Shown here piece after piece: positions 6,528-41,195 of a stretch of 64,000 nt of DNA. The notes under the pieces are model-generated. The model was not told the DNA's origin and ran no database searches. It saw nothing but the letters and a program-made list of their open reading frames with translations. Source of the DNA: a virus. Positions within the stretch are counted from its first letter, which is position 1. Every line of letters begins with the position of its first letter. The stretch lies in IMG/VR virus record IMGVR_UViG_3300025015_000001, one strand, 5' to 3'. Made by a program: the position numbers and the translations under genes.

Positions 6528-6601
6528 TGGCTTACCCGCCTCGACTCGAACGAGGATATCTGACTTCAAAGGACAGCGACTTGCCATTAGTCCACGGGTA
6601 A
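6528..6601 (-). tRNA. tRNA-Gln(UUG)
   Basis: Cloverleaf: acceptor TTACCCG/CGGGTAA, anticodon loop CTTTGAA, T-loop TTCGAGT, encoded CCA. Confidence 0.92.
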
Positions 6602-16316: not shown

Positions 16317-17108
16317 TTAATCCCATAAACATTCAAAATGATCTATAACCTTCATTAATATCTTTTTTCTTTCTTTGCACTTTTTAGTGTGTTCTACTAT
16401 TACTTTTTTTCTGTCTCTATCAGTTTTACAATTAGCAAAATTTATGTCAGTATTTTCATCCGCGTAGTCTAAGAACGCATCCCCTACTCTGTGTAGTTCG
16501 GCCTGCCACTCTTCAAAAGTTTCAAACTTACTATCAGGCCAACCATGCGTAGTATCGGCTAATTGTTTTAGCCCATTACCGATTATATCAGCTAAGAAAT
16601 AATCGTATGACCAGATATCTCTGTCACTATAACCACGACGACCTCTTTGTACAAAGTATTTAATTTCTCTAGGAAAATCTTTTATTTTATGATAAATCCC
16701 CAAAAATTTTCTACGAAGATATACATAGATATTTCTTGGGAATTTACTATCTTTTATTCTCTGTTTTTCCCATCTTTCTATTATTTCATCCATTGAAAAT
16801 GTTCTAAATGGTTCTGCTGAGACTGCAGTTGTGCCCGTTAGCGTAAATTTAACTGTATCGTCTATAGGAGGAAAAATTGACCGACTCTTAGTCAGACCAT
16901 CGTACATAAAATTCAAATCTGGAAACTTAAGCTTAGATGTATTTACAGCATGATCTCTTAGTATAACAGAGTAATCTTTTTTACTTTTTTCCCTACTAAG
17001 TTTCTTTAAGTTTTCTGCTGGAGTTTCCTCATTAGATTTTATTTTTTTAATAAAATCTTTAGCATCCATATCGGTTAGTATTGGTGTTTCTGCTATTTTC
17101 CTAGCCAT
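16317..17108 (-). CDS. hypothetical protein
   Basis: 263-aa ORF with an SD. Confidence 0.75.
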   Translation of the reverse strand: MARKIAETPILTDMDAKDFIKKIKSNEETPAENLKKLSREKSKKDYSVILRDHAVNTSKLKFPDLNFMYDGLTKSRSIFPPIDDTVKFTLTGTTAVSAEPFRTFSMDEIIERWEKQRIKDSKFPRNIYVYLRRKFLGIYHKIKDFPREIKYFVQRGRRGYSDRDIWSYDYFLADIIGNGLKQLADTTHGWPDSKFETFEEWQAELHRVGDAFLDYADENTDINFANCKTDRDRKKVIVEHTKKCKERKKILMKVIDHFECLWD

Positions 17109-17146
17109 TTATTTATCTCCATTTATTGTTTAGCCTCTGTAGACTA

Positions 17147-17539
17147 CTACTTTTGCCATAGCATATCTATGGTGTTAATAACTTTTTTTAAATCTATTAT
17201 AGCCTCTTTTGGTATGTTATATAATATAGATTTATCAGTATAACACACACTATCATATTTATCTTTTACCATTAAAGCGGGAGCACCGCACATATTACTA
17301 AAAGATATTCGTATATTATTATAGTTTTTATAAGGTATTCCTGTTTTAGATAATGTATAATTTTTAGATACTAGGTACTCTACTATCTTGTATTCCTCTA
17401 CTAAGCCTTCATCATTACATATCCTCTCTATCTCCTCTCTACCTCTAATACATTCTTTGCAGAGAAATGCTTTTTCTCTTGCAAATTTTGGCGGTTCTTC
17501 TTTGGTTTCGCATTTTGTGCAGGTATATAGTTTTGTCAT
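17147..17539 (-). CDS. hypothetical zinc-binding protein
   Basis: CTKC...CKEC at the N-terminus. Confidence 0.7.
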   Translation of the reverse strand: MTKLYTCTKCETKEEPPKFAREKAFLCKECIRGREEIERICNDEGLVEEYKIVEYLVSKNYTLSKTGIPYKNYNNIRISFSNMCGAPALMVKDKYDSVCYTDKSILYNIPKEAIIDLKKVINTIDMLWQK

Positions 17540-17665
17540 TTTATGTAATTCCTTAATTATCTGATTAGTGGATTAACATCGTTTTAATAGTCTCTGTGGC
17601 TAGCCATGATGTACAAACCATTCTCGTGCTTTCTGATTCATTTTCATCTCATCCCAAAACCGTGA

Positions 17666-17896
17666 CTACTCTGCTGGGTTCCTACTGCTGAAGAGGAGAT
17701 ATTTCTTCAAATTGCTGTGTAGCACTAATAGGTGCTTTACAGCCGCAAAAGGGACAAAATTAACTGGGTTTCCTAAGTATCCTTCTTTTCCCTGTACCCA
17801 AAATGTCCCGTTAGATTCTTCAGTACAACTATCAAGTTGCTGTTGATAGTTGTTTACTTCGTAAAATTTAGTATAATCACAACTATGCCTTGTCAT
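17666..17896 (-). CDS. hypothetical protein adjacent to the first attC
   Basis: GGAGG SD immediately next to the attC R'' site at 17914. Confidence 0.6.
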   Translation of the reverse strand: MTRHSCDYTKFYEVNNYQQQLDSCTEESNGTFWVQGKEGYLGNPVNFVPFAAVKHLLVLHSNLKKYLLFSSRNPAE

Positions 17897-17913
17897 ACAA
17901 AAATGTAACCTCC

Positions 17914-17973
17914 TTATAACAGGCGGATGCAATAGATTCCACTTTGCTACACTATTGATCCTTGGCGTTGGGC
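17914..17973 (+). other. attC site 1
   Basis: TTATAAC AGGCG GATGCAAT...ATTGATC CTTGGC GTTGGGC, with an extrahelical G. Confidence 0.8.
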
Positions 17974-17974
17974 G

Positions 17975-18229
17975 TTAGTAGTCATAGAAGCCTTCGATCT
18001 CTTTCCCGTCCGCATAAATGCCACCTTCGTGTGGCTGTAAACTACTCACAGTTTCCTCACCATCTGCGCTTAACTCATGCCGGTAAATGTCATCGCTGTT
18101 ACCACCATAACCGCATGTCAGCCGCTTTCCATCTGGAAGGTCTGCCTCATAAGTGAAAGTGTATTTGTAGTAGCTCGAAAACTTTACTTTCACGCTCCCA
18201 TATTTATGGTAAAATTCTTGCCTTGTCAT
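17975..18229 (-). CDS. cassette-borne hypothetical protein (84 aa)
   Basis: Fills the cassette at 17968-18311. Confidence 0.75.
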   Translation of the reverse strand: MTRQEFYHKYGSVKVKFSSYYKYTFTYEADLPDGKRLTCGYGGNSDDIYRHELSADGEETVSSLQPHEGGIYADGKEIEGFYDY

Positions 18230-18254
18230 AACTCACCTCTTCGATTAAAGTTCA

Positions 18255-18317
18255 GCCCAATCCATCGTTCAACCCGGACTCCGCAAAAGCGCGGAGCCGG
18301 TTAACTCTACGTTATAT
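18255..18317 (+). other. attC site 2
   Basis: GCCCAAT CCATC GTTCAACC...GGTTAAC TCTAC GTTATAT. Confidence 0.85.
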
Positions 18318-18319
18318 TT

Positions 18320-18888
18320 TTAAACCTGCGCTAAAAGCAGACCCCATTGGTCTGCCATTCCAGCGGCTATCCCTTGGAATGTTTTACTGCGTTCTTTCCA
18401 CCTATCAGGACTTGGCGGCATCCTGTGAATCCGACTTTCTCTCCCGTCCACGATATTCGTCGGTTTTAATGGCGGCAAACCTTTCAGCCAAAGACACGTT
18501 GCCTTTGTCTCCCCGTGCCCGAATTGCCACGGCTGTATCAATTGGTCAGGCTTCCGCCACAGTGATGACATAATACATACTGGGTTTTCTATTGCAATCT
18601 TTGGAATATCAGCCGTTGCCAGCATCATAAAAAAGCTGATTGCACTTTGCTGCCGTCCATCCAGTTTCTTGGCGGTAAAATGTTTTGCCCCCGATACAGA
18701 TAAATGGGTACATGGCGGGTGCGCTATCATTATATCCCAACATCCATGTATTACGTCTCTGATATCCCCTGATAATGCGCGCCAGGGGAATCAGTCGGCA
18801 AAATATCACAGGACATTGCGTCATGCCCCCTTTCAATAAACGCATCCCGAACTATTCCGCTGAATTCACACGCGACTAAAACTCTCAA
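18320..18888 (-). CDS. phage DNA cytosine methyltransferase-like protein (frameshifted at the G4 run, 18766-18769)
   Basis: LRVLVACEFSGIVRDAF, AHPPCTHL (catalytic PPC), ENP, IQPWQFGH; one extra G restores QGDIRDVIHGCWDIMIAHPPC. Confidence 0.8.
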
Positions 18889-19026
18889 TCGTAATCTCCT
18901 GGCGGTGGCCCGTCTCCCGATGTCCCCCCGCCAAGGGCTGCAATACATATAAGCAAAAAAATAATCCCAAATATCATCAGTTCCAATTCTAACCCCCTAT
19001 GGCTTCCAGCCAGCGCAGATTTAAAA

Positions 19027-19086
19027 ATATAACCAGTCGCTCAAGAGGGATGCGATAAGGCCGCACCCCTTAGCTTGGCGTTAGGT
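19027..19086 (+). other. attC site 3
   Basis: ATATAAC CAGTC GCTCAAGA...CCTTAGC TTGGC GTTAGGT. Confidence 0.85.
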
Positions 19087-19242
19087 GCGAACCCACACCA
19101 CTTCAGTTCCTAGCCAAAAAATACTGGTACATTTGCCCCAAACAACAATCTTTGGAAAAATCCGGTACTTTGGGTATCCACCCGCAAATAACAATTTGCC
19201 TCCAATTAAAGTTTTTCCGCGAGTCCACTTGTTAATGTTCAT
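19081..19242 (-). CDS. cassette-borne hypothetical protein (53 aa, MNINKWTRGKTL...)
   Basis: Manually translated; its TAA stop is the TTA of the R' site. Confidence 0.55.
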   Translation of the reverse strand: MNINKWTRGKTLIGGKLLFAGGYPKYRIFPKIVVWGKCTSIFWLGTEVVWVRT

Positions 19243-19250
19243 GCAATCGC

Positions 19251-19335
19251 ACCTAACTGTGTGTTCGAGGCGGACGCGGAATTACGCCGCGCCTAGTTTT
19301 ACTTCTTGGCCGCGCCGCTCAACACGGCGTTCTCC
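19251..19335 (+). other. attC site 4
   Basis: ACCTAAC TGTGT GTTCGAGG...GCTCAAC ACGGC GTTCTCC. Confidence 0.8.
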
Positions 19336-19598
19336 CGGTGCTTCGCGCCGTGAGAATGCGGAGCTAAGCCGAACCCGCCACCCATCAGCTCGTCATGCGC
19401 CCCGTGAAACTTGGCTACGCATTCTGGCAGTCGTTGCAGCCATCCATCAACATCATCCAGTGGCACATCTCCGAATAGACGACATACCCCCTCAGTTCCA
19501 AACCTGCGGGCGAACACAAACGGACACATCGAGCCGGGGTAAGACGGCGGTTCGCTGCATGTCGTTTCGCCTGTGTGAAAAATCAAAACCTGCTTCAT
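19299..19598 (-). CDS. cassette-borne hypothetical protein
   Basis: GGAGG SD; reads through a degenerate attC half and into attC 4. Confidence 0.55.
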   Translation of the reverse strand: MKQVLIFHTGETTCSEPPSYPGSMCPFVFARRFGTEGVCRLFGDVPLDDVDGWLQRLPECVAKFHGAHDELMGGGFGLAPHSHGAKHRENAVLSGAAKK

Positions 19599-19622
19599 TG
19601 TTTCCTCCGTAGTTGTTGCAGA

Positions 19623-19678
19623 TCCTAACCGTCAATCAACGCGGACGGCTTCCATCTGCCGTTATTTCGGCGTTAATA
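19623..19678 (+). other. attC site 5
   Basis: TCCTAAC CGTCA ATCAACGC...CGTTATT TCGGC GTTAATA. Confidence 0.8.
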
Positions 19679-19680
19679 TC

Positions 19681-19860
19681 CTACTTTTGTTTTTTTGGAT
19701 AAGCAATATTTAGCGTCCATGATATTGTAGTATTCTTTCCACAATGCCTACATGCCCATTCAACTGAATACCCTTGAGGGACATCAAACTGGAAATTAAG
19801 AGGGGTAATATTTCTTTTTTCACAATGAATACATTTCCAATTAAACTTTGTTTTATCCAT
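19681..19860 (-). CDS. cassette-borne zinc-ribbon protein (59 aa)
   Basis: Manually translated MDKTKFNWKCIHC...ACRHCGK. Confidence 0.6.
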   Translation of the reverse strand: MDKTKFNWKCIHCEKRNITPLNFQFDVPQGYSVEWACRHCGKNTTISWTLNIAYPKKQK

Positions 19861-19876
19861 ATACGTATCTCATCTC

Positions 19877-19925
19877 ACCCAACCAGCCGTTCAAGCCGAT
19901 GAACGACTTAACTCATTCGTTATAT
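19877..19925 (+). other. attC site 6 (short)
   Basis: ACCCAAC CAGCC GTTCAAGC CGATGAACG ACTTAAC TCATTC GTTATAT. Confidence 0.8.
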
Positions 19926-20330
19926 TTTGAAAATCACTATTGCACTCGGAAAAGGCGCACTGTTGGCTTGCCCTCCGAATTTCAGCCGTCCTCTAATAAA
20001 TCTTATTTCACCCTTTACCGCGTAATCGTGCCACCATGCCGTGTCCGTTCTCGCCGGAACAAGACAAACCACCGTTGCACCGGCGCGTGAGCTTTCGTAT
20101 GCCTTACGCATCCAGCGGGCTATTTCCCGGCCATACGGCTGGTTCATCCAGCAGATCCCGCGCCACTCTTGCTTTAAGCCGTCTTGTTCCGGCGAGAAGA
20201 AGCGCGGACACTTTGCGTTTTCCGGTATCGCGCATACGTCAAGAGCAAAACCAAATTCCTCGTGCAATTTGTCGAACGTGGCCTGTGGTGTGCTCCATAA
20301 ATCTGTCTCTGACGAAAAATGTACGTTCAT
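19920..20330 (-). CDS. phage DNA N6-adenine methyltransferase (Dam-like, PF05869 type)
   Basis: DLWSTPQ..F..L..EFGFALDVCA; WMNQPY (NPPY variant); LVPARTDTAWW; GRLKF; APFPS. Confidence 0.88.
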   Translation of the reverse strand: MNVHFSSETDLWSTPQATFDKLHEEFGFALDVCAIPENAKCPRFFSPEQDGLKQEWRGICWMNQPYGREIARWMRKAYESSRAGATVVCLVPARTDTAWWHDYAVKGEIRFIRGRLKFGGQANSAPFPSAIVIFKI

Positions 20331-20342
20331 AAAAACCTCAAA

Positions 20343-20401
20343 ATATAACCAGTCATTCGAGCCGACTCCGCTTCGCTGCGCGGCTCAATTCTTTGTTATG
20401 T
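20343..20401 (+). other. attC site 7 (aadA-like 59-be)
   Basis: ATATAAC CAGTC ATTCGAGC CGACTCCGCTTCGCTGCGCG GCTCAAT TCTTT GTTATGT, close to the classical aadA attC top strand. Confidence 0.92.
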
Positions 20402-20956
20402 GCTCTTTTTGTCCGTTGTTTCATACTCCGCTGCGGATTCCTTGTAGTAGGCATCCATCTGCTTCATTGTCACTTTCTTCCAGTCTTGGAACGTCCGAGG
20501 GTTCCGGTAGTCGCTGAACTGGAAGCGGTTACGGACATCCAATGTCACGGAACCGTCATCGTGAAAAACGGGCTGGCATCCCAGGACAATGTAAGCGTCA
20601 TTCTTGCGGCAGACCTTGTGCCAGCGGTCGTTAAACTCGAACTGCTTGTCATCCCATTTCCACTGTGGGCGATTTGCTACCCGTTCGCGGTCATAGAAGT
20701 TGAGCCCGACATTTTCCCACCAGCAAAGTTCCCCATCCTCGATACTTTCCAGCAGGTACTTCGGCCATCCATTGTTCTGGTCATATTCCCGGAACCAAGA
20801 CAGATACCACTTTGACGGCGGTGCAGAGGTCAGCGAAACGAGGTCGCCGACTTGTGGCTTATCGTTACCAAAATCCGACCGCCAATCCTTATTGTTGATC
20901 GTCGGAAACGACATCAACTCACTCAGTATCATCAATCTCGCTCTATTTTTTGCCAC
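20396..20956 (-). CDS. cassette-borne hypothetical protein (Trp-rich)
   Basis: GTG start after a GGGG SD; TAA stop within R'. Confidence 0.7.
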   Translation of the reverse strand: MAKNRARLMILSELMSFPTINNKDWRSDFGNDKPQVGDLVSLTSAPPSKWYLSWFREYDQNNGWPKYLLESIEDGELCWWENVGLNFYDRERVANRPQWKWDDKQFEFNDRWHKVCRKNDAYIVLGCQPVFHDDGSVTLDVRNRFQFSDYRNPRTFQDWKKVTMKQMDAYYKESAAEYETTDKKST

Positions 20957-20976
20957 GTAATCCCCCTTGAATCCGC

Positions 20977-21037
20977 ACATAACAAGCCGCAGCAGACAGA
21001 CTGCGCTCCGCTTGCTGCTGTGCTAAATACGTTAGGA
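20977..21037 (+). other. attC site 8
   Basis: ACATAAC AAGCC GCAGCAG...CTGTGC TAAATAC GTTAGGA. Confidence 0.8.
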
Positions 21038-21262
21038 TTTCACTTTGAGAATATCGGCCATTTCTTCGTCGGATAATTTATCATGCACTTTAATATGCTC
21101 CGCTCCGTGGACGATGAGCTGTTCGAGGTCGTAGGTGATAAAACCAAAAGACACCCACCCAAGACAAACGCGGTACAAGAATCCTGCCGCAATTTCGATC
21201 CTGAAACCGCCGTATGTTTTCCCGATACAAAAATATCCGCTGAATCCGCGTGGTATATTCAA
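21032..21262 (-). CDS. cassette-borne hypothetical protein
   Basis: GGAGGAG SD with a TTG start; TAA stop within R'. Confidence 0.6.
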   Translation of the reverse strand: MNIPRGFSGYFCIGKTYGGFRIEIAAGFLYRVCLGWVSFGFITYDLEQLIVHGAEHIKVHDKLSDEEMADILKVKS

Positions 21263-21273
21263 AGCTCCTCCAA

Positions 21274-21331
21274 TCCTAACCATAAAATCGACGGCGACGC
21301 GCTTCGCTTGCGCGTCATTTTGGTGTTAATC
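21274..21331 (+). other. attC site 9
   Basis: TCCTAAC CATAA AATCGACG...CGTCATT TTGGT GTTAATC. Confidence 0.85.
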
Positions 21332-21589
21332 TATGCAATGCTTTTCTAACTCTCTGATCTGTGATAATAAGTCTGTCACTATCATTTTCTCAGTAGCAAG
21401 CTCTTCTTTGAGATGCTTATTCTCATTTTCGAGATATCGTAACTTGCAAAAAGGACAAATACCATCATGCAATACAGTCTTATCACAATCACAAGTCTCA
21501 AGACTAACGCCAGCATCCAGCGGACTCACTATCTCCCGGCCTGTGCTTTTCTCGTATGTCTTGCCGTCTTTAAACTCTATATTGTCCAT
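21326..21589 (-). CDS. cassette-borne hypothetical protein with Zn-finger and coiled-coil features
   Basis: GGAG SD; CDC...CPFC; TAA stop within R'. Confidence 0.6.
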   Translation of the reverse strand: MDNIEFKDGKTYEKSTGREIVSPLDAGVSLETCDCDKTVLHDGICPFCKLRYLENENKHLKEELATEKMIVTDLLSQIRELEKHCID

Positions 21590-21621
21590 ATATCTCCTGC
21601 CGCTGGATGCTGGCGTTAGGC
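21502..21621 (+). other. attC-like site 10 with perfect 20-bp arms
   Basis: CTAACGCCAGCATCCAGCGG (21504-21523) is the exact reverse complement of 21600-21619. Confidence 0.65.
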
Positions 21622-21800
21622 TCCAACAACTCAACCCCGACCACGTTGGCATGTGAATATGCCCCGTAGGCATCGCGCAGGTACTTTTCTACTTCTGGAA
21701 TATCCAGATCAAATGTTTTGTGCTTTGTTTCCACGCTAACGCTACCACCAACATTTGCAGCCATACTTGCATCATCTACTCGAACTATTATGCGAATCAT
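21570..21800 (-). CDS. cassette-borne hypothetical protein
   Basis: GGAGAGG SD; first gene downstream of the array promoter. Confidence 0.6.
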   Translation of the reverse strand: MIRIIVRVDDASMAANVGGSVSVETKHKTFDLDIPEVEKYLRDAYGAYSHANVVGVELLEPNASIQRQEIYGQYRV

Positions 21801-21823
21801 TGCATCCTCTCCATTTCTTTTGC

Positions 21824-21882
21824 GCCTAACTGGCGCTTCAACCGGACGCCCGAACTGCCTTGTTATAATCTAGGCGTTACAT
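21824..21882 (+). other. terminal attC site 11 (degenerate right arm)
   Basis: GCCTAAC TGGCG CTTCAACC...GGC GTTACAT. Confidence 0.6.
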
Positions 21883-21909
21883 TGTATATCATTTATCTTA
21901 AAAAGTCAA
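21881..21909 (-). promoter_or_regulatory. sigma70-type promoter pointing into the cassette array
   Basis: TTGACT (21909-21904)-N17-TACAAT (21886-21881). Confidence 0.7.
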
Positions 21910-21911
21910 TA

Positions 21912-22568
21912 TTAACATTTTCTGTTTAATCTTGTATTTATAATGCTTAATTGATTACTATAAATATGCAGCCCATCCGAGGCGTAATATATTTTACCAT
22001 TTTCTAAATTTGCCTCGGAGGATACTAGTTGTTTTAATAATTCTAACCCCGCCAAATTTGTTGGAAAGCCTCCGTAAAGATCGTTTGATCTAAAGAATAT
22101 AGACATGTTTAATTTATTGTCTACTACTTTGAAAGTAAGCGTTCTGAGGCATGGTGGGTCAGTCTTAAATATATCACCAGAAGAAGCTATCTCAAGCGCA
22201 GCTTGATTCGTATATGGAGTAGCTTTTAACATCTCTATCAGTGTGTTTATATATGGTTTTATACGAGAACCATACGTGTAAATTTCATTTTCTTTTAACT
22301 CATCATTCATTAAATACATAGCAAAATAATCTTCTACATATGACATAGTAGTGGGGGCCAATGATTCCATTCCCTGCGGCATAATAGGAATCATATCTAT
22401 ACTTGGGTGCTCTATTTCTATTGCGACAAAAGGGTATTGTATTCTATAGTTTTCCTCACCAGAAAAAGACCCTCTTTGTATGATCTGTTTGTATCCATAC
22501 TCTTGTATGTTGTATAACAGTCCAAACCATGCATCCGAGATACTGTAATATTTATTTGAATAAATCAT
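21912..22568 (-). CDS. thyA: thymidylate synthase family protein (short type)
   Basis: YTYGSR, DPPCL (catalytic Cys), FRSNDLYGGFPTN (Asn implies a dUMP substrate), LHIY. Confidence 0.8.
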   Translation of the reverse strand: MIYSNKYYSISDAWFGLLYNIQEYGYKQIIQRGSFSGEENYRIQYPFVAIEIEHPSIDMIPIMPQGMESLAPTTMSYVEDYFAMYLMNDELKENEIYTYGSRIKPYINTLIEMLKATPYTNQAALEIASSGDIFKTDPPCLRTLTFKVVDNKLNMSIFFRSNDLYGGFPTNLAGLELLKQLVSSEANLENGKIYYASDGLHIYSNQLSIINTRLNRKC

Positions 22569-24035: not shown

Positions 24036-24389
24036 TCATAGCTCAATTTTCTTTATATTATTTAATGCATTTGCTGGAGCTAATATTATCCCGGAACACT
24101 TTGCCATAATTCCTTCATAATTTTTGTATAATTGCATTGTATCAGTAATCTCTGATATTGCTCCAATATGAACGTGAATATCCGATGGCTTGTCTACCCC
24201 ATGAATAATTGGCTGTAACATAGCACCAACTTGCATTATTACTCCTTCTGGAGTAAGCGCATTTACATCTCTTATTTTAAAAGCATCATATAGGCTAAGC
24301 CCAAAATCACCATCATAATTTTTTATCTTACCAATATATGATGAACCACCTGTGTCCACCAAAACTAATGTATCATTTTGATATTTCAT
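24036..24389 (-). CDS. hypothetical protein
   Basis: ORF abutting the recA stop codon. Confidence 0.7.
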
Positions 24390-26680
24390 TTAATCTCCTT
24401 TAACTTACTCTCAATTTCTTTTTTAATATTATCGTTAGCTTCTAAATACTCTATAGTCTTATCTCTGCCATGTCCAATGTTTTCTCCGTTATATTTATAC
24501 CAGGCTCCTGACTTTTCTATTATACCATAATTTTCAGATAAGTCAACAATTTCTCCTATACGATCAATACCTTTTCCATAAATTAAATCAAAATCACACT
24601 CACTGAACGGTGGTGCTACCTTATTTTTAACAACCTTTACATGAACCTTTTGCCCAAGTATCTTATCGCCCTCTTTTATAGTTTCCCTTTTCTTTGTCTC
24701 CAACCTAACAGAAGAATAAAATTTGAGAGCATTTCCTGATGTAGTAACATTCGGGTCACCATACGAAATAAGTTTTTGCCTTATTTGATTGATGAATATT
24801 GCTATTGTATTTGTTTTTGATATAGTAGCTGTGAGCTTTCTACAGTTGTGTACAACCATATTATCTATAATGAAATTAGGAGAATCGTTTACAGATATAT
24901 CATATACTTTAGACATGCCACATTCTGTTACTGATTCCACCTTTGACCAACATAATTCTCCGTTAGATAAATCAAATAGTTCCTCATTTTTTATAAATTT
25001 AGATATTTTAAATAAAATATCACGTGAAATTTTTAATCTATTTGGCCTAAATTCTGGGAAGGAGGTTCTGTTTGTATAACCAATCAAATGTGATATGTCT
25101 TTCCCAGTAAAACCAGCAGCATATGTATATTTTTTTATCTTTTCAAAAACTGAGTAAGGCAACATCTCTTCTCTAGAAATTTGATCTGATTTATACTCCT
25201 TATTTTTAAATAAGGCTCTAAGTTTAGCGTCCTTACAACCAACCAAACCTATGCTATCCAAAAATATTTTAGTATTTTTTCGTCCTAAAATATTTAATTT
25301 ATACAAATTATGGTAAGGTTCTCTAGTTGACATTATTATTTTACTATGAATCCCAAAGCGTAGTAATAAATGTTTTAGTTGCTTAATCATTTTCTGTGAC
25401 GTTGAGCTGTACACAATGTTACCATTAACAACATGCCCGTCTGTAGACCATAATCTAGAGATAAATAAAGCCAGCTCAGTATTATTTAGCGTAAAGATTT
25501 CGCTTGGTATGTATTTTTGTGGAGATTTTTTGCCATGCATCCCTAATTTCTTTAATAGTTCTTTTACTGGTGACTTAAAAGACCCTAAAGGTAGACTCTC
25601 GTCTTTTATTATACGGTAACTTTTATGGTCTATTGCTTTTAACTTACAATTAAAACTTTTTAGTGCATCAGCTAAGTCACTAATTACTACTGGGTCCATC
25701 TTAGTAAAGCTAAGGCCATAGTTAGGTGTTGTAAAATTACCATCTCCTAAAATATAAGCTATTATTTTTATGGCGTCCGAACTCAGCGTTGTCTTGTAAT
25801 TTTTTATTTCTGGTATTCTGTATGGGGTTGCTATATAGTCCGTTGGTGTTAAATCCTTAACATCTTTCCAGCCGATAAATGTTAATACTTTATGATCCCC
25901 GGTTAATTTCAGTACACTACTATTATCTAATTTTACTTTATATACTGTCCTACTTCCTTGGTCAAACCAATCGCCTATACTAGAGATAATAAATTTCTTA
26001 GTGCCTTCATTGTATGTTGTGGTATTCCAATCTAATTTGTTATTAACAATATTTTTGATAGTCTCAATATTTCCGGTCAAAGGGTCAAATAATTCTGTAT
26101 CTTCCGCCAAGCATGCTTGACTGAGCAAGCGGGCTTGGAGCCCCATATGACTCTGCCCCATCTCCCCCTCTAACTCAGCTTTTGGTACTAAGGCTGCAAC
26201 AGAATCGATCACCACCACCCCTATTGAACCGCTGCTTATCAATGTATCCGCTATCTCAAGTGCTTCTTCTCCCGTTGTCGTCTGGCTTATAAGTAATTCA
26301 TTTACATTAACTCCATATGTTTTAGCTAAATTAATATCCAAAGCATGCTCAGCATCTATGAAAGCACACGTCTCACCCAACTTCTGGGCTTCCCTTATTA
26401 CGTGCAACGCTAACGTCGTCTTGGAAGACCCCTCGAATCCATATATTTCAACTATCCTCCCGCGCGGAAGCCCTCCTACTCCTAAAGCATTATCAAGCCC
26501 CATGGACCCTGTGGATATGGTTTCTGTCTTTTCTATATTAGCACTATTAAATTTCATAATAGCACCATTACCAAACTGTTTCTTTATATCAGCAAGCGCT
26601 TTATCTAGGCTTTCTACTTTACCTTTTTTTTCTATTTCTTGATAAGATGTTTCTTCTTTTACTTTCTTTTCTCTTGCCAT
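24386..26680 (-). CDS. recA: RecA recombinase containing an intein
   Basis: [46 protein letters not shown]; start refined to MAREKK. Confidence 0.95.
24845..26113 (-). mobile_element. LAGLIDADG intein in recA (423 aa)
   Basis: SQA|CLAEDT...VVHN|CRKL; IAYILGDG and [10 protein letters not shown] endonuclease motifs. Confidence 0.92.
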
Positions 26681-26712
26681 GTAATTGCTCCTACTTTGCA
26701 TTTAATATGTTT

Positions 26713-31569: not shown

Positions 31570-31640
31570 TAGCTCCCAGTAGGATTCAAACCTACGTCTT
31601 CTCTACTACAAGTAGAGGCTTTGATTAAGCTACAGAAGCC
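31570..31640 (-). tRNA. tRNA-Thr(UGU), no encoded CCA, atypical T-loop
   Basis: Anticodon arm CTCTA-CTTGTAG-TAGAG; T arm GTAGG-TTTGAAT-CCTAC; wobble-rich acceptor stem. Confidence 0.7.
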
Positions 31641-38072: not shown

Positions 38073-41000
38073 TTAAAGTTCACAACTACCAGAAGTACAG
38101 GCTAATTCCTGACTACCAATAGTCTTATCCTCCTGTTCATATATTTTCAGTAAATCCCAATCAATTTTAACAGGCATATCTTCTATTAAAGAAAGATATT
38201 CTTTTTCTGAGATACTTTCATAAGGTTGTTGTTTATATGTATGCTCTGCTAAAGGTAAAAAAGAAACCCCACCTATTGAATCAAAATGCTTGTAAACCCA
38301 TGCTCCCACATCTAACCATTCTTCTTCTTTAACGTATACAGTTATGGAAGGATTATGCTCACACCAACTTTCTCGATAATGTAGCCAATGCTCTAATTGT
38401 TTAATAGCATTAATATCCTCTACACATATAGCAGAATCTGGACTTTTTTGGGGGAAACTAAATATATACAAAGAAGTGTTTAGGAGGTCTTCCTCATATG
38501 GAATTTTATGTTCAATAAGAACAGAAGATATTGGATCTTTTTTATCTAATCTAATCCTTCTTATAAAGAACTTTGAAAACCTTGGATGAATGCCTGACGA
38601 AGAATTAACTAACTGTGAAACTGTACCAGAAGGCTTAACTGCTGTTATAGCCATAGCAGAATTTATTCCCAATATCTCAGCATATTCCTTGTTAGTTGTA
38701 ATAGCTATATTTTTTAGAGAGTCTAGTAGACTTGGAAGTTTTTCCATATTTGATAATATTGAAAAATTTATGTTATCCATAATACCTGTCAAAGAGACAC
38801 CTAGTAATGCCTCTTCTTTTGTATTATCTGTCCATATCTTTCGTAAATATCTAAAATCAGACAGTGTTGCCTGTAGCGTCCCTAAAATAGTTGCTAATTT
38901 TACTTTAGTTTGAATAGCCTCTATAGTATCAAAATCTCGTATAATGACCTCTGAAAGATTACATACTTGATTTGGTCGTAAAATTATCTCAGCGCAGGGG
39001 TTCATTCCAAAATCTCTACCACTATCCCTCCTACCTGTTTTTTCTGCCTGTGCTTGTAGTGCTTTTCTATTAATAATCCCTCGTTCCCCACTTTTACTAT
39101 TATAAAGAGATAACCATTCCTGTATAAAAATACCTGTATCTGGACGCTCTGTATAAACTGCTGAGTTATTGGCAAGCTGTCTTTGTGGATTTTCTATCCA
39201 CCACTGCCCATTTTTTGCAACACGCATTCTATCATCAGAAACATTTGATAAACTTATCAATGATGAATTATGGGTGAGAATCCCACTTACTAAGAAACAG
39301 GCATCATTCTCCACCTGAATATCATAAGTATTTTTTTCTATTTCTGTCTTTTCAACACCTACAACTTTAATTGGTAGGTAAGTAAATTCTTTATTAGTAG
39401 TTTTAATGAATTTATGAAAACTTAAGTATATAGCTGATTTTCTTCTACAACTACAGTAGGAAGATGAAAACAATTTTTTATAAGAGGATTTTTTTAATAG
39501 ATTTTCGGGGACAACATATCCTCGTTCAGCTCTTTTTTCTACAAAAGAAGAGTCTTTTTCCCATTTAGAAGAGTATTTACCTATCTTCTGTCCAAAATCT
39601 TTAACTATGAATTGTCCTATAAGATTTAATCTATATAAACTTTTCCAATTAGGCTTATAATTTTCTTTTCTATCCAATTTTAAACAGGAAGGGATTCCTA
39701 AAGATGCTAATAATCCCTGTACCTGCTTTAGATATTCAGGGTACACTGAAGAAGCAACACAAATGGGTCTATTTCTTAGACTTCCATCAGCATCAAAAAG
39801 TCCTGCTATATATGCAGCCCGTATTTCAGATGTTCCTTCTAATATAAAGGTAGGAATATCAATACTTATTTTAGGTTTTTTAAATTGAGAAAGATATTCC
39901 GCTAATTGTTTAGAGGCAACTTCTGGTTTAGAACAATTTTCAGTAGTCATATGTTTAGGATTTATTTTTATACCAAAGCGTTCTAATTGTCTCATGACTC
40001 TCTTATGCTGCTCTGGTAGAGTATTAGCACATGCTATTGTGACTTTATCTGAACAATCATTTATCTTCCTATCAAATGTTCCTACATAACCATCCCCATG
40101 TAGCTGTCCAAAAAACCAAGCTAATTCTTCATCTAATTCAGGAATGGTAATATCTTTACAAGTTGAGGACATTTTAGGTTTATTGTACAACCATGAAGGT
40201 AATTGAGTTTTAGTGCCCTCAGTGGTTTCTGGAATAAACACTAAAGTATCAGTCTCTGCTAAATCTTTAGCCTCTTTATAAGAAACACCCCCCTCTAAAT
40301 CTGACAATACTGCCCATCTATGCTCATAACTACTCTCAAATACCCCCAACTGTGTTTTAATAGCTATCATATTTTTTAAACCTGTATTCTCAACAGCAAT
40401 AACTTTAGAATATTTATCTTTCCCTGTAGCTACTTCATCATCTATAGTGATATCTTTTATTTTTTTCAATCCTTTTCGTGTACTTATCATAGAATTTTCA
40501 GGTAAACATCTACGAACTCCACCAGATACTACAACTTCAGCTACTTTGCACATCAAATCATGACATTCAATAGAAGTCAACTTTCGACCAGAAGCCCCTT
40601 TAAAAATCTGAACAGCAAATTTAAATAATGCTTCCAAAGGTTCTTTTCCAGAAGCTCGACCACCAAAAGTTTTCAGTTTTGCCCCTTTAGGTCTAATTTT
40701 AGACATATCCCATTTAGGCACTTGTCCATTCCATAGTAAAGAAAGTAACTCCCTAAAAGCAGTTGCCCACCCTATTTTGGAATCCTTAATAATAATAATT
40801 GTATCAGTATCACTAAAAGTTTCAGCTATTTCTGGCAGTTGGTTAATGTACTGTCTTTCTACACTGAACCCAATTCCTGCACCACACATAAGAATATACA
40901 TGGCCTCATCAAAAACTTTAGGTGAGTCAATTGGTGAGTAACTACAGTTAAAGGCAGCGATGTTGTCTTTTTCTAGTGCTTTTCCAGCAGTCATTAAAGC

Positions 41001-41195
41001 CCTCATTGAAGGCATTATTTCTTGCTTATACACAGCATCTCTTAATTCCTGCCAAGGAATATCTTTATCAGAGTATCTATTTTTAAAAAATCCAATATAC
41101 CTATCTACCGTTTCCTCCCAATTCTCTCGCCTACCTTCTGAATCTACCCACTTTGCATATTTTGATTTATAAATAATTTCTTGGTACAAATTCAT
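38073..41195 (-). CDS. nrdJ: class II (adenosylcobalamin-dependent) ribonucleotide reductase containing an intein
   Basis: MPSMRAL, FNCS, NPCAEI, TAVKPSGTVSQL, C-terminal CTSGSC. Confidence 0.93.
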   Translation of the reverse strand: MNLYQEIIYKSKYAKWVDSEGRRENWEETVDRYIGFFKNRYSDKDIPWQELRDAVYKQEIMPSMRALMTAGKALEKDNIAAFNCSYSPIDSPKVFDEAMYILMCGAGIGFSVERQYINQLPEIAETFSDTDTIIIIKDSKIGWATAFRELLSLLWNGQVPKWDMSKIRPKGAKLKTFGGRASGKEPLEALFKFAVQIFKGASGRKLTSIECHDLMCKVAEVVVSGGVRRCLPENSMISTRKGLKKIKDITIDDEVATGKDKYSKVIAVENTGLKNMIAIKTQLGVFESSYEHRWAVLSDLEGGVSYKEAKDLAETDTLVFIPETTEGTKTQLPSWLYNKPKMSSTCKDITIPELDEELAWFFGQLHGDGYVGTFDRKINDCSDKVTIACANTLPEQHKRVMRQLERFGIKINPKHMTTENCSKPEVASKQLAEYLSQFKKPKISIDIPTFILEGTSEIRAAYIAGLFDADGSLRNRPICVASSVYPEYLKQVQGLLASLGIPSCLKLDRKENYKPNWKSLYRLNLIGQFIVKDFGQKIGKYSSKWEKDSSFVEKRAERGYVVPENLLKKSSYKKLFSSSYCSCRRKSAIYLSFHKFIKTTNKEFTYLPIKVVGVEKTEIEKNTYDIQVENDACFLVSGILTHNSSLISLSNVSDDRMRVAKNGQWWIENPQRQLANNSAVYTERPDTGIFIQEWLSLYNSKSGERGIINRKALQAQAEKTGRRDSGRDFGMNPCAEIILRPNQVCNLSEVIIRDFDTIEAIQTKVKLATILGTLQATLSDFRYLRKIWTDNTKEEALLGVSLTGIMDNINFSILSNMEKLPSLLDSLKNIAITTNKEYAEILGINSAMAITAVKPSGTVSQLVNSSSGIHPRFSKFFIRRIRLDKKDPISSVLIEHKIPYEEDLLNTSLYIFSFPQKSPDSAICVEDINAIKQLEHWLHYRESWCEHNPSITVYVKEEEWLDVGAWVYKHFDSIGGVSFLPLAEHTYKQQPYESISEKEYLSLIEDMPVKIDWDLLKIYEQEDKTIGSQELACTSGSCEL
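39267..40508 (-). mobile_element. LAGLIDADG intein in nrdJ (414 aa)
   Basis: GGVRR|CLPEN...ILTHN|SSLISLS; FFGQLHGDG and IAGLFDADG. Confidence 0.92.

Follow-up and report, generated by a model that had tools for sequence, protein, structure and literature searches.

A window of 64,000 nucleotides from the IMG/VR virus record IMGVR_UViG_3300025015_000001 (194,269 bp in full, the window lying on its minus strand) carries at 17.6–21.9 kb what is, with high probability, a genuine integron cassette array of about 11 cassettes. The array lacks an integrase (a cluster made up of attC sites without an integrase, or CALIN), and its cassettes would have been inserted into the phage genome by an integron integrase (IntI) acting in trans. 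Integrons are usually viewed as devices of bacterial adaptation, and their cassettes have lately been cast as banks of anti-phage defences. In this phage the array holds phage-type cargo, and every cassette open reading frame (ORF) runs antisense to the polarity of its attC site.

We searched for attC sites with a covariance model (R1) built on an alignment, with R''/R', L''/L' and inner-stem pairs, of only eight distinct attC sites from two plasmid class 1 integrons, L001 (intI1-blaGES-5-aacA4-catB10-blaOXA-4-aadA8) and L002 (aadA2-cmlA1-aadA1-qacL). The model was run unfiltered on both strands of the window (128 kb searched). Its ten best matches, all on the + strand, begin exactly at ten of the eleven coordinates at which a preliminary description of this DNA had placed attC-type palindromes; the count given there, about 11 sites in 4 kb, was right on both figures. 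Six of these matches have E < 0.03 and the other four rank next-best over the 128 kb, with a noise ceiling of 10.9 bits across the 194-kb genome once its three GC-rich islands are excluded. R1 also recovered its positive controls, namely L001, L002 and phage TJE1, in which it found exactly the three published attCs at 24.6–28.9 bits. No R1 match was obtained on either strand for the remaining site at 21824. A regular-expression and pairing scanner for attC-like sites was dropped as too noisy in AT-rich DNA. The sites, with their R1 scores and, where noted, the z score of their predicted fold, are:

S1, 17914–17973, + strand: attC; R'' TTATAAC, L'' with an extra G, R' GTTGGGC, which complements the R'' of S2; 14.3 bits; folds as a bulged stem.
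S2, 18255–18317, + strand: attC; R'' GCCCAAT, R' GTTATAT; 31.0 bits; fold z −3.3.
S3, 19027–19086, + strand: attC; ATATAAC to GTTAGGT; 28.1 bits; fold z −3.5.
S4, 19251–19335, + strand: attC; ACCTAAC to GTTCTCC; 19.0 bits; 3' half overlaps the end of ORF c4; R' mismatches the next R'' (0 of 4 bases).
S5, 19623–19678, + strand: weak or degenerate attC; TCCTAAC to GTTAATA; 12.0 bits, E 0.69; fails to pair with either neighbour.
S6, 19877–19925, + strand: short attC of 49 nt; ACCCAAC to GTTATAT; 28.6 bits; fold z −2.5.
S7, 20343–20401, + strand: attC resembling those of aadA and catB10; ATATAAC to GTTATGT; 45.5 bits.
S8, 20977–21037, + strand: attC belonging to cassette c7; ACATAAC to GTTAGGA; 11.3 bits.
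S9, 21274–21331, + strand: attC; TCCTAAC to GTTAATC; 17.1 bits; folds as a bulged stem.
S10, 21502–21622, + strand: atypical long site; GACTAAC to GTTAGGC; 10.6 bits; fold z −5.7.
S11, 21824–21882, + strand: decayed terminal site; R'' GCCTAAC, a spacer, then GTTACAT; fold z −1.0.

The sites share the architecture of integron attCs. GTT followed by four nucleotides ends all 11 of them and xxxxAAC opens all except S2, which has AAT. The L''/L' repeats and an extrahelical base, always on the 5' arm of the + strand, are clear in S1, S2, S3, S4, S6, S7 and S9 and are not clear in S5, S8, S10 and S11. S7, described earlier as close to the classical 59-base element, is indeed 89–92% identical to the attCs of catB10 and qacL in gene-sense orientation, and S8 is partly conserved with the attC of a homologous cassette in another contig (L206, see below). 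In S10 a perfect inverted repeat of 23 nt encloses a loop of 76 nt with an ORF start inside it, and the arms of the repeat sit within the coding sequences of c9 and c10. In S11 the R'' pairs with the R' of S10 (4/4 bases) and the L''/L' pairing is lost. With 10–11 sites in 4 kb on one strand, spaced by 164–709 nt and accompanied by no intI, the block has the composition of a CALIN, as its preliminary label had it, and its GC content (0.47, 0.48, 0.51 and 0.43 over 18–22 kb) is raised relative to flanks of about 0.30, also as first described. These sites are attCs of the same kind as those of class 1 and environmental integrons.

Strand exchange by IntI falls between the G and the TT in R', and in arrays the outer R' bases belong to the following cassette and complement that cassette's own R''. 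We therefore counted how many of the outer four nucleotides in each R' complement the following site's R''. The matches across cassettes were [4, 4, 4, 0, 0, 4, 4, 4, 3, 4], with seven of the ten junctions perfect and one at 3/4, and those within sites under the same test were [0, 0, 2, 0, 2, 1, 3, 2, 1, 3, 1]; the known arrays L001 and L002 behave alike. The preliminary description had asserted this complementarity for the array as a whole, and it stands at these eight junctions and fails at S4→S5 (19251→19623) and S5→S6 (19623→19877). A search for displaced R' partners of S5 and S6 (TTAGGA and TTGGGT) found none. Seven perfect 4-mers in ten junctions cannot be chance. Because the complementarity lies between neighbours and not within sites, only recombination at G|TT explains it, plain palindromes giving the opposite pattern. 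The hybrid R'/R'' junctions are the trace of recombination of the IntI type at G|TT.

On the right, the array is bordered by the G|TT of an R' box with phage DNA directly after it, and S11 marks there the edge of the GC-rich block, GC content dropping at about 21900. On the left, a candidate junction of the form ...ATCG|TTTTAATAG is placed at about 17581, the point from which GC content begins to rise; provided that these borders are right, the empty site would have read ...ATCG|TTACATTG...

Could these sites be regulatory hairpins of the phage, such as terminators or the module borders known as promoter-stem-loops (PeSLs), that merely look like attCs? Some of them do score as terminator-like and the phage has its own repeated intergenic hairpin elsewhere, but that hairpin differs in sequence and is absent from the array block. 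The sites instead fit a model of clinical attCs on one strand only, S7 has about 90% identity with the attC of catB10, the complementarity joins neighbouring sites, and the same attC family builds arrays in bacterial genomes. We regard this explanation as scarcely credible and as refuted by the R1 matches and the between-site complementarity.

The array sits in the early or DNA-metabolism region of a complete groundwater phage. The record has direct terminal repeats and a CheckV completeness of 100%, and PHROG matches in the window include a DNA polymerase, a UvsX-like recombinase, a ribonucleotide reductase, a helicase, a dNMP kinase and a thymidylate-synthase-like protein, so that replication genes surround the block in a genome whose ends are closed. 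A conserved 670-aa protein (phrog_1735) shares 52% identity with its counterparts in phiCbK-like and RSL1 jumbo phages. The array had been described as embedded in a jumbo-phage genome; the phage part of this holds, and the size, at 194,269 bp, is borderline for the term.

A sharp GC step, together with abundant attC repeats that break assemblies at S2, would be expected if a piece of a bacterial integron array had been mis-joined into a phage contig. However, a 6-kb stretch over both borders is present in groundwater metagenome runs of several studies, and independent Logan contigs from another study cross both borders free of mismatches (left, 16900–18294; right, 21207–22388), a second run also bridging 17366–18295. 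Since contigs of independent origin bridge both junctions, the block is not a chimera, and the integrity of the contig, raised earlier as a point to confirm, is supported. The cassette ORFs are moreover codirectional with the phage genes, two further islands have the same orientation and the terminal repeats close the record. A chimeric or contaminated assembly is thus very improbable and largely refuted.

No match to PF00589 or TIGR02249 occurs anywhere in the 194-kb record, which extends to the whole genome the earlier statement that the window has no IntI. With no integrase in the genome, and with attI and Pc not recognisable from sequence alone, no complete integron was found. The ORFs of the array are:

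c0, 17666–17896, − strand: 76 aa; Shine-Dalgarno motif AAGGAGG abutting S1.
c1, 17975–18229, − strand: 84 aa; related to a hypothetical protein of the T4-like cyanophage S-PM2.
c2, 18320–18948, − strand: phage-type DNA methyltransferase (phrog_757), split into ORFs of 65 and 136 aa.
c3, 19081–19242, − strand: 53 aa; its stop codon is supplied by TTA in the R' of S3.
c4, 19299–19598, − strand: 99 aa; Shine-Dalgarno motif GGAGG.
c5, 19681–19860, − strand: 59 aa, zinc-ribbon-like, with weak zf matches.
c6, 19920–20330, − strand: Dam-type DNA N6-adenine methyltransferase (PF05869, 1.3e-30); as a cassette, the unit spans 19920 to the G in the R' of S7.
c7, 20396–20980, − strand: 186 aa, of an uncharacterised phage accessory family of 186–194 aa; as a cassette, the unit spans 20396 to the G in the R' of S8.
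c8, 21032–21283, − strand: 83 aa; its stop codon is supplied by TTA in the R' of S8.
c9, 21326–21589, − strand: 87 aa, coiled-coil and Cys-rich; Shine-Dalgarno motif AGGAG within the S10 loop.
c10, 21570–21800, − strand: 76 aa; Shine-Dalgarno motif GGAGAGG.

The cargo is phage-type, consisting of two DNA methyltransferases (one of them frameshifted) and small accessory ORFs, and not of defence systems. The family of c7 has 144 homologues in phage-like neighbourhoods, and an ESM Atlas search with c7 yielded sub-threshold leads only. Pfam gave no match for c1, c2, c3, c4, c7, c8 and c9, and PHROGs gave none for c1, c3, c4, c7, c8, c9 and c10. Nine ORFs (c0, c1, c3, c4, c5, c7, c8, c9 and c10) had no match in PADLOC, the sole library with which c0 was scanned, and the anti-phage defence cargo to which the preliminary description alluded thus did not appear. 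The split of c2 results from one base at a G4 run near 18770, which separates ORFs at 18751–18948 and 18320–18730 (−); across the frames the protein reads ...AHYQG|DIRDV... An independent contig is identical over 18284–19533, frameshift included, and c2 is either a pseudogene or contains a slippery site.

At least two units, c6 and c7, occur in unrelated DNA as the same discrete cassettes. An 8.9-kb contig of JGI metagenome 3300000558 (L206) carries between two attCs a homologue of c7 that is 74% identical, and the DNA homology extends from G|TTATGT to ...CG|TT, i.e. over the ORF and its own attC (S8) and nothing more. Homologues of the c6 Dam cassette, also antisense, occur in three other arrays (L128, L095 and L148). 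Homology to the one in L128 begins at the crossover, where the cassette start and R'' co-vary (TTATAT/ATATAAC here and TTATAC/GTATAAC there). The units of the array are bounded by G|TT, with the homology of c6 and c7 to DNA elsewhere ending at the crossovers. Common cassettes are about 78–82% identical in DNA to their copies elsewhere, and hence no recent transfer is seen.

The attC family itself is widespread. An 18-mer of S2 occurs in more than 117 metagenome contigs and 12 IMG/VR contigs, and arrays with it are found in metagenome-assembled genomes of Gallionella, Burkholderiales and other Betaproteobacteria, including one Gallionellales genome labelled 'RIFCSP'. The 18-mer gave 49 genome matches in total, many of them, in GC-rich Actinomycetota, probably due to chance; eight loci have a model-supported attC, seven of them two or more. 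In two groundwater runs the S2 core (18266–18314) reaches a depth of 140–233× against 6–8× for the phage (20–40×), and many contigs that share this core continue into different sequences or cassettes. These depths and divergent continuations indicate a large array of that attC family in an abundant member of the community.

The window array is not the only one in this genome. Two further GC-rich islands are present:

Island B, L020:7065–8827 (genome 105164–106926), same strand as the window array, 6.9–8.7 kb before the window start: six R1 attCs of 46.8 to 15.4 bits.
Third GC-rich island, L021:240–1375 (genome ~118040–119175): weak R1 matches of 13.9, 10.5 and 10.0 bits.

Island B has a GC content of 45–55% and small ORFs on the opposite strand with Shine-Dalgarno motifs, and one of its sites is nearly identical to S2. 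The third island contains three copies of a palindrome of about 47 nt, ..AAC-CAATAG-CTGAACGGG-ACAGG-CCCGTTATC-..GTT, with an attC layout on a very short stem. As a separate observation, the phage has an intergenic hairpin of its own, GCTCTAGGC-NNN-GCCTAGAG, after which come ACTACGTAAA and a ribosome-binding site. It is present in four copies (genome positions 100639, 104943, 106943 and 108977), two of which exactly bracket island B, and is reminiscent of the promoter-stem-loops that border modules in T4-type phages.

The alignment of S7, the restriction of R1 matches to the + strand and the position of the extra base on the 5' arm together identify + as the canonical attC top strand. Every cassette ORF in the window array is on the − strand, antisense to attC polarity and in the direction of the neighbouring phage genes, a feature on which the preliminary description was silent. 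That the − strand is coding is backed by family or homologue matches (the c6 Dam methylase, the phrog_757 methylase, the S-PM2 relative and c7), and a clear Shine-Dalgarno motif precedes seven of the 12 ORF starts of this array (island C). In c3, c6, c7, c8 and c9 the stop codon coincides with the opening three bases of the ORF's own cassette, these ORFs ending on TAA, the complement of the TTA in the preceding R'. Sense cassettes often stop in R'', which the TAA endings mirror, and the units are thus well-adapted cassettes of antisense type. A sigma-70-like promoter match lies where transcription would enter the array:

Promoter match, 21881–21909, − strand: TTGACT-17-TACAAT, in phage DNA adjoining the array upstream by transcription; a weak, consensus-only match, the number of such matches in the region not exceeding that in shuffled sequences.

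We compared the polarity of arrays by two crude ORF heuristics, taking the classification of IMG/VR contigs as given. Sense:antisense counts were 11:0 and 22:0 for bacterial-genome arrays of the S2-type attC family, 8:0 for class 1 integrons, 36:13 and 43:17 for unsorted metagenome arrays, and 5:19 and 12:18 for IMG/VR arrays (IMG/VR against bacterial genomes, Fisher p ~1e-5 to 3e-6). In L128 the Dam cassette is antisense amid sense neighbours. Antisense polarity as a general rule for phage arrays was rejected, and this speaks against too broad an interpretation: since the TJE1 CALIN is canonical, antisense polarity on viral contigs is an enrichment and not a rule. Full-text literature searches found no paper on reversed cassette polarity in phages.

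These counts allow the tentative suggestion that phages keep a pool of their own antisense cassettes, often stopping on the TAA of R', that circulates between phages. Such units might be silent in a bacterial integron and expressed inside a phage transcription unit, with the recombinogenic bottom strand as the coding, and probably the lagging-template, strand. They might spread via host IntI or via integrases of phage-like elements such as that in L206, with occasional deposit in bacterial arrays. If so, the 194-kb phage, with two to three islands and 17–20 sites, would be the richest example so far.

A variant in which the recombinase itself is phage-borne, with integron integrases of phage-like elements serving the antisense pool in trans during co-infection, is in our judgement unlikely. 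The integrase of L206 (TIGR02249, 307 bits against a cut-off of 265) lies downstream of, and codirectional with, antisense cassettes that include the c7 homologue, amid phage-family genes (DUF5131 and several PHROGs; L206:2713–6794), and four IMG/VR contigs (L209–L212) encode integrases 74–81% identical to it. The enrichment of antisense cassettes in IMG/VR arrays points the same way. On the other hand, L206, just 8.9 kb long, could come from a bacterial integron or from the edge of a prophage, and the IMG/VR contigs may be misclassified, the polarity counts being heuristic. R1, with its class 1 bias, located no attCs beside the four IMG/VR integrases, and the 194-kb phage itself has no integrase.

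Returning to insertion by IntI in trans, we suggest that the enzyme could have come during infection from a host integron or a co-resident element. A first cassette might have been inserted at a secondary GWT site (attC × attG) and later ones added by attC × attC recombination. Expression would occur by phage read-through transcription and not from a Pc promoter, and the methylases may act as counter-restriction. With the polarity reversed, it is the recombinogenic bottom strand that would code; if phage genes are codirectional with the replication fork, this strand would also serve as the lagging-strand template, which might favour folding and exchange. The same polarity would leave such cassettes silent inside a bacterial integron.

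Several observations weigh against this account as a whole. R1 is a small model with a class 1 bias. S5, S8, S10 and S11 are weak, atypical or undetected; weakness or decay affects four or five sites in all. Two junctions fail to match, and the c2 methylase is frameshifted. A clean G|TTATAA was looked for at the left border and not found, and both ends of the array are degenerate. A phage of 30% GC also fits oddly with the Betaproteobacteria of about 55–60% GC that bear the S2 attC family. No close phage relative was found for comparison of the locus among phage records or in IMG/VR: a megablast search of 50,697 phage records gave no match to the left flank, and the thymidylate-synthase-like neighbour has IMG/VR relatives at no more than 39% identity. 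Finally, four runs from three other studies contain the same array, with no joints from cassette loss and no content variants; runs with small word shares have low coverage and are uninformative on variants.

Much of this would follow if the array were a fossil, inserted by IntI long ago and now fixed, decaying cargo without exchange, so that the phage does not 'use' integron recombination; we consider this a serious alternative with somewhat less than an even chance. An array unchanged over several runs, years and studies, a degenerate S11 and an atypical S10, the broken junctions, the frameshift in c2, the identity of only about 78–82% to cassette copies elsewhere and the lack of an integrase are all consistent with it. 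Nevertheless, six to seven sites retain the full attC architecture and score like functional attCs, the TJE1 attCs that IntI1 recombines scoring 24.6–28.9 bits on the same model. In addition, two to three separate islands in this one genome argue for repeated acquisition, and the invariance is weak evidence because the runs probably sample one aquifer population. Present-day activity can at most be inferred, given the lack of content variation, the frameshifted methylase, the degenerate ends and the failure to find a close relative. The preliminary description had the phage using host IntI to build an exchangeable gene library; movement of the units by IntI-type G|TT recombination stands, and ongoing use is at most conjectural, the array being the same across samples.

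The genes that flank the array, and some other features of the window, are as follows:

Flanking gene, 17147–17539, − strand: phage protein of 130 aa.
Flanking gene, 21912–22568, − strand: thymidylate-synthase-like, 31–35% GC.

The UvsX-like recombinase (771 aa, 24386–26701, −) has three separate family-matching stretches and an unrelated C-terminal segment and may contain an intein or inserted domain; GC content is raised, at 0.42, in the kilobase at 26–27 kb. In the ribonucleotide reductase (1040 aa, 38073–41195, −) only residues 644–1039 match the family, and the N-terminal 640 residues, with faint helicase-like or unknown matches, may reflect a fusion or an intein. Rfam holds no attC family, and its scan of the window gave two tRNA genes only (6531–6601 and 31571–31639 (−); RF00005, 54 and 43.5 bits).

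As this genome shows, numerous cassettes, spread over several islands and carrying accessory and putative counter-restriction cargo, can be accommodated by a large phage of lytic type, and their polarity can be consistently opposite to that in bacterial arrays built from the same attC family. Should the antisense bias of viral contigs prove true under proper annotation, this would point to a separate, phage-adapted cassette pool. This would provide a concrete means of recognising phage-derived cassettes in bacterial integrons, and would bear on the origin of cassettes and on who exploits integrons in the arms race between phages and bacteria. If the bias fails, this would still be the largest phage CALIN known to us, as far as the published arrays we could draw on extend, and a good substrate for recombination assays.

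Among known systems, the mobile modules of T4-type phages flanked by PeSLs, reportedly the subject of work by Arbiol and colleagues in 2010, resemble the present islands in that small accessory ORFs in hyperplastic regions are bracketed by a repeated hairpin, as in island B. However, PeSLs are promoter-stem-loops that are exchanged through homologous recombination; they are not attCs and lack the G|TT crossover signature. Inverted toxin-antitoxin cassettes with their own promoters occur in Vibrio superintegron arrays, and there too the ORF is opposite to the attC top strand. Those cassettes are a scattered minority with their own promoters, whereas in the phage array all are antisense, compact and apparently transcribed from outside. 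An inverted cassette with its own promoter has also been described by Qi et al. (PMC9892861).

Bacterial CALINs and sedentary chromosomal integron arrays are known from Cury et al. (2016, NAR, PMC4889954). The arrays of Gallionella and other Betaproteobacteria share with the phage array the attC family marked by the S2 18-mer, the R''/L''/L'/R' layout and the hybrid junctions. They differ in that their ORFs are sense (11:0 and 22:0) and the surrounding GC content is other, the phage array having phage cargo. Loot et al. (bioRxiv 10.1101/2022.09.11.507474) showed that IntI can insert cassettes into GWT sites that lie outside integrons, by attC × attG recombination (SALINs). This route explains how cassettes come to lie outside integrons without an integrase, and the right border of the array accords with it. 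That work concerned E. coli chromosomes and IntI1–3, whereas here the left border is not clean, and an array of 11 cassettes would need additional attC × attC events.

The closest parallel is provided by Qi et al. (2023, PMC9892861), in which, by the part of that paper on which we draw, phage-borne attC clusters were first reported, as small arrays of two or three sites. In a screen of 10,705 phage genomes with a minimum of two attCs per CALIN, they found 17 CALINs, and five methylase cassettes, in virulent and temperate phages such as TJE1 (Tetrasphaera; three attCs and four ORFs), P12002L (Polaribacter) and PH101 (Pseudoalteromonas). IntI1 recombined five of the six attCs tested from virulent phages, and two of the three TJE1 attCs were assayed and recombined with attI1 under IntI1. 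The concept, treated as if unprecedented in the preliminary description, was therefore already established, IntI1 assays included. As in those phages, the attC cluster described here is integrase-less and has DNA methyltransferases among its cargo, and the TJE1 attCs are of the ordinary bacterial type and score in the range of the better sites here. The TJE1 sites have been assayed with IntI1, whereas the present ones are known from metagenome sequence alone. The CALINs figured in that paper are small, with three attCs in TJE1 compared with 11, six and about three weak ones here, and the TJE1 ORFs are sense to their attCs whereas those of this phage are all antisense. Thus, phage CALINs as such were already known, and what differs in the array described here is its large size and its inverted polarity.

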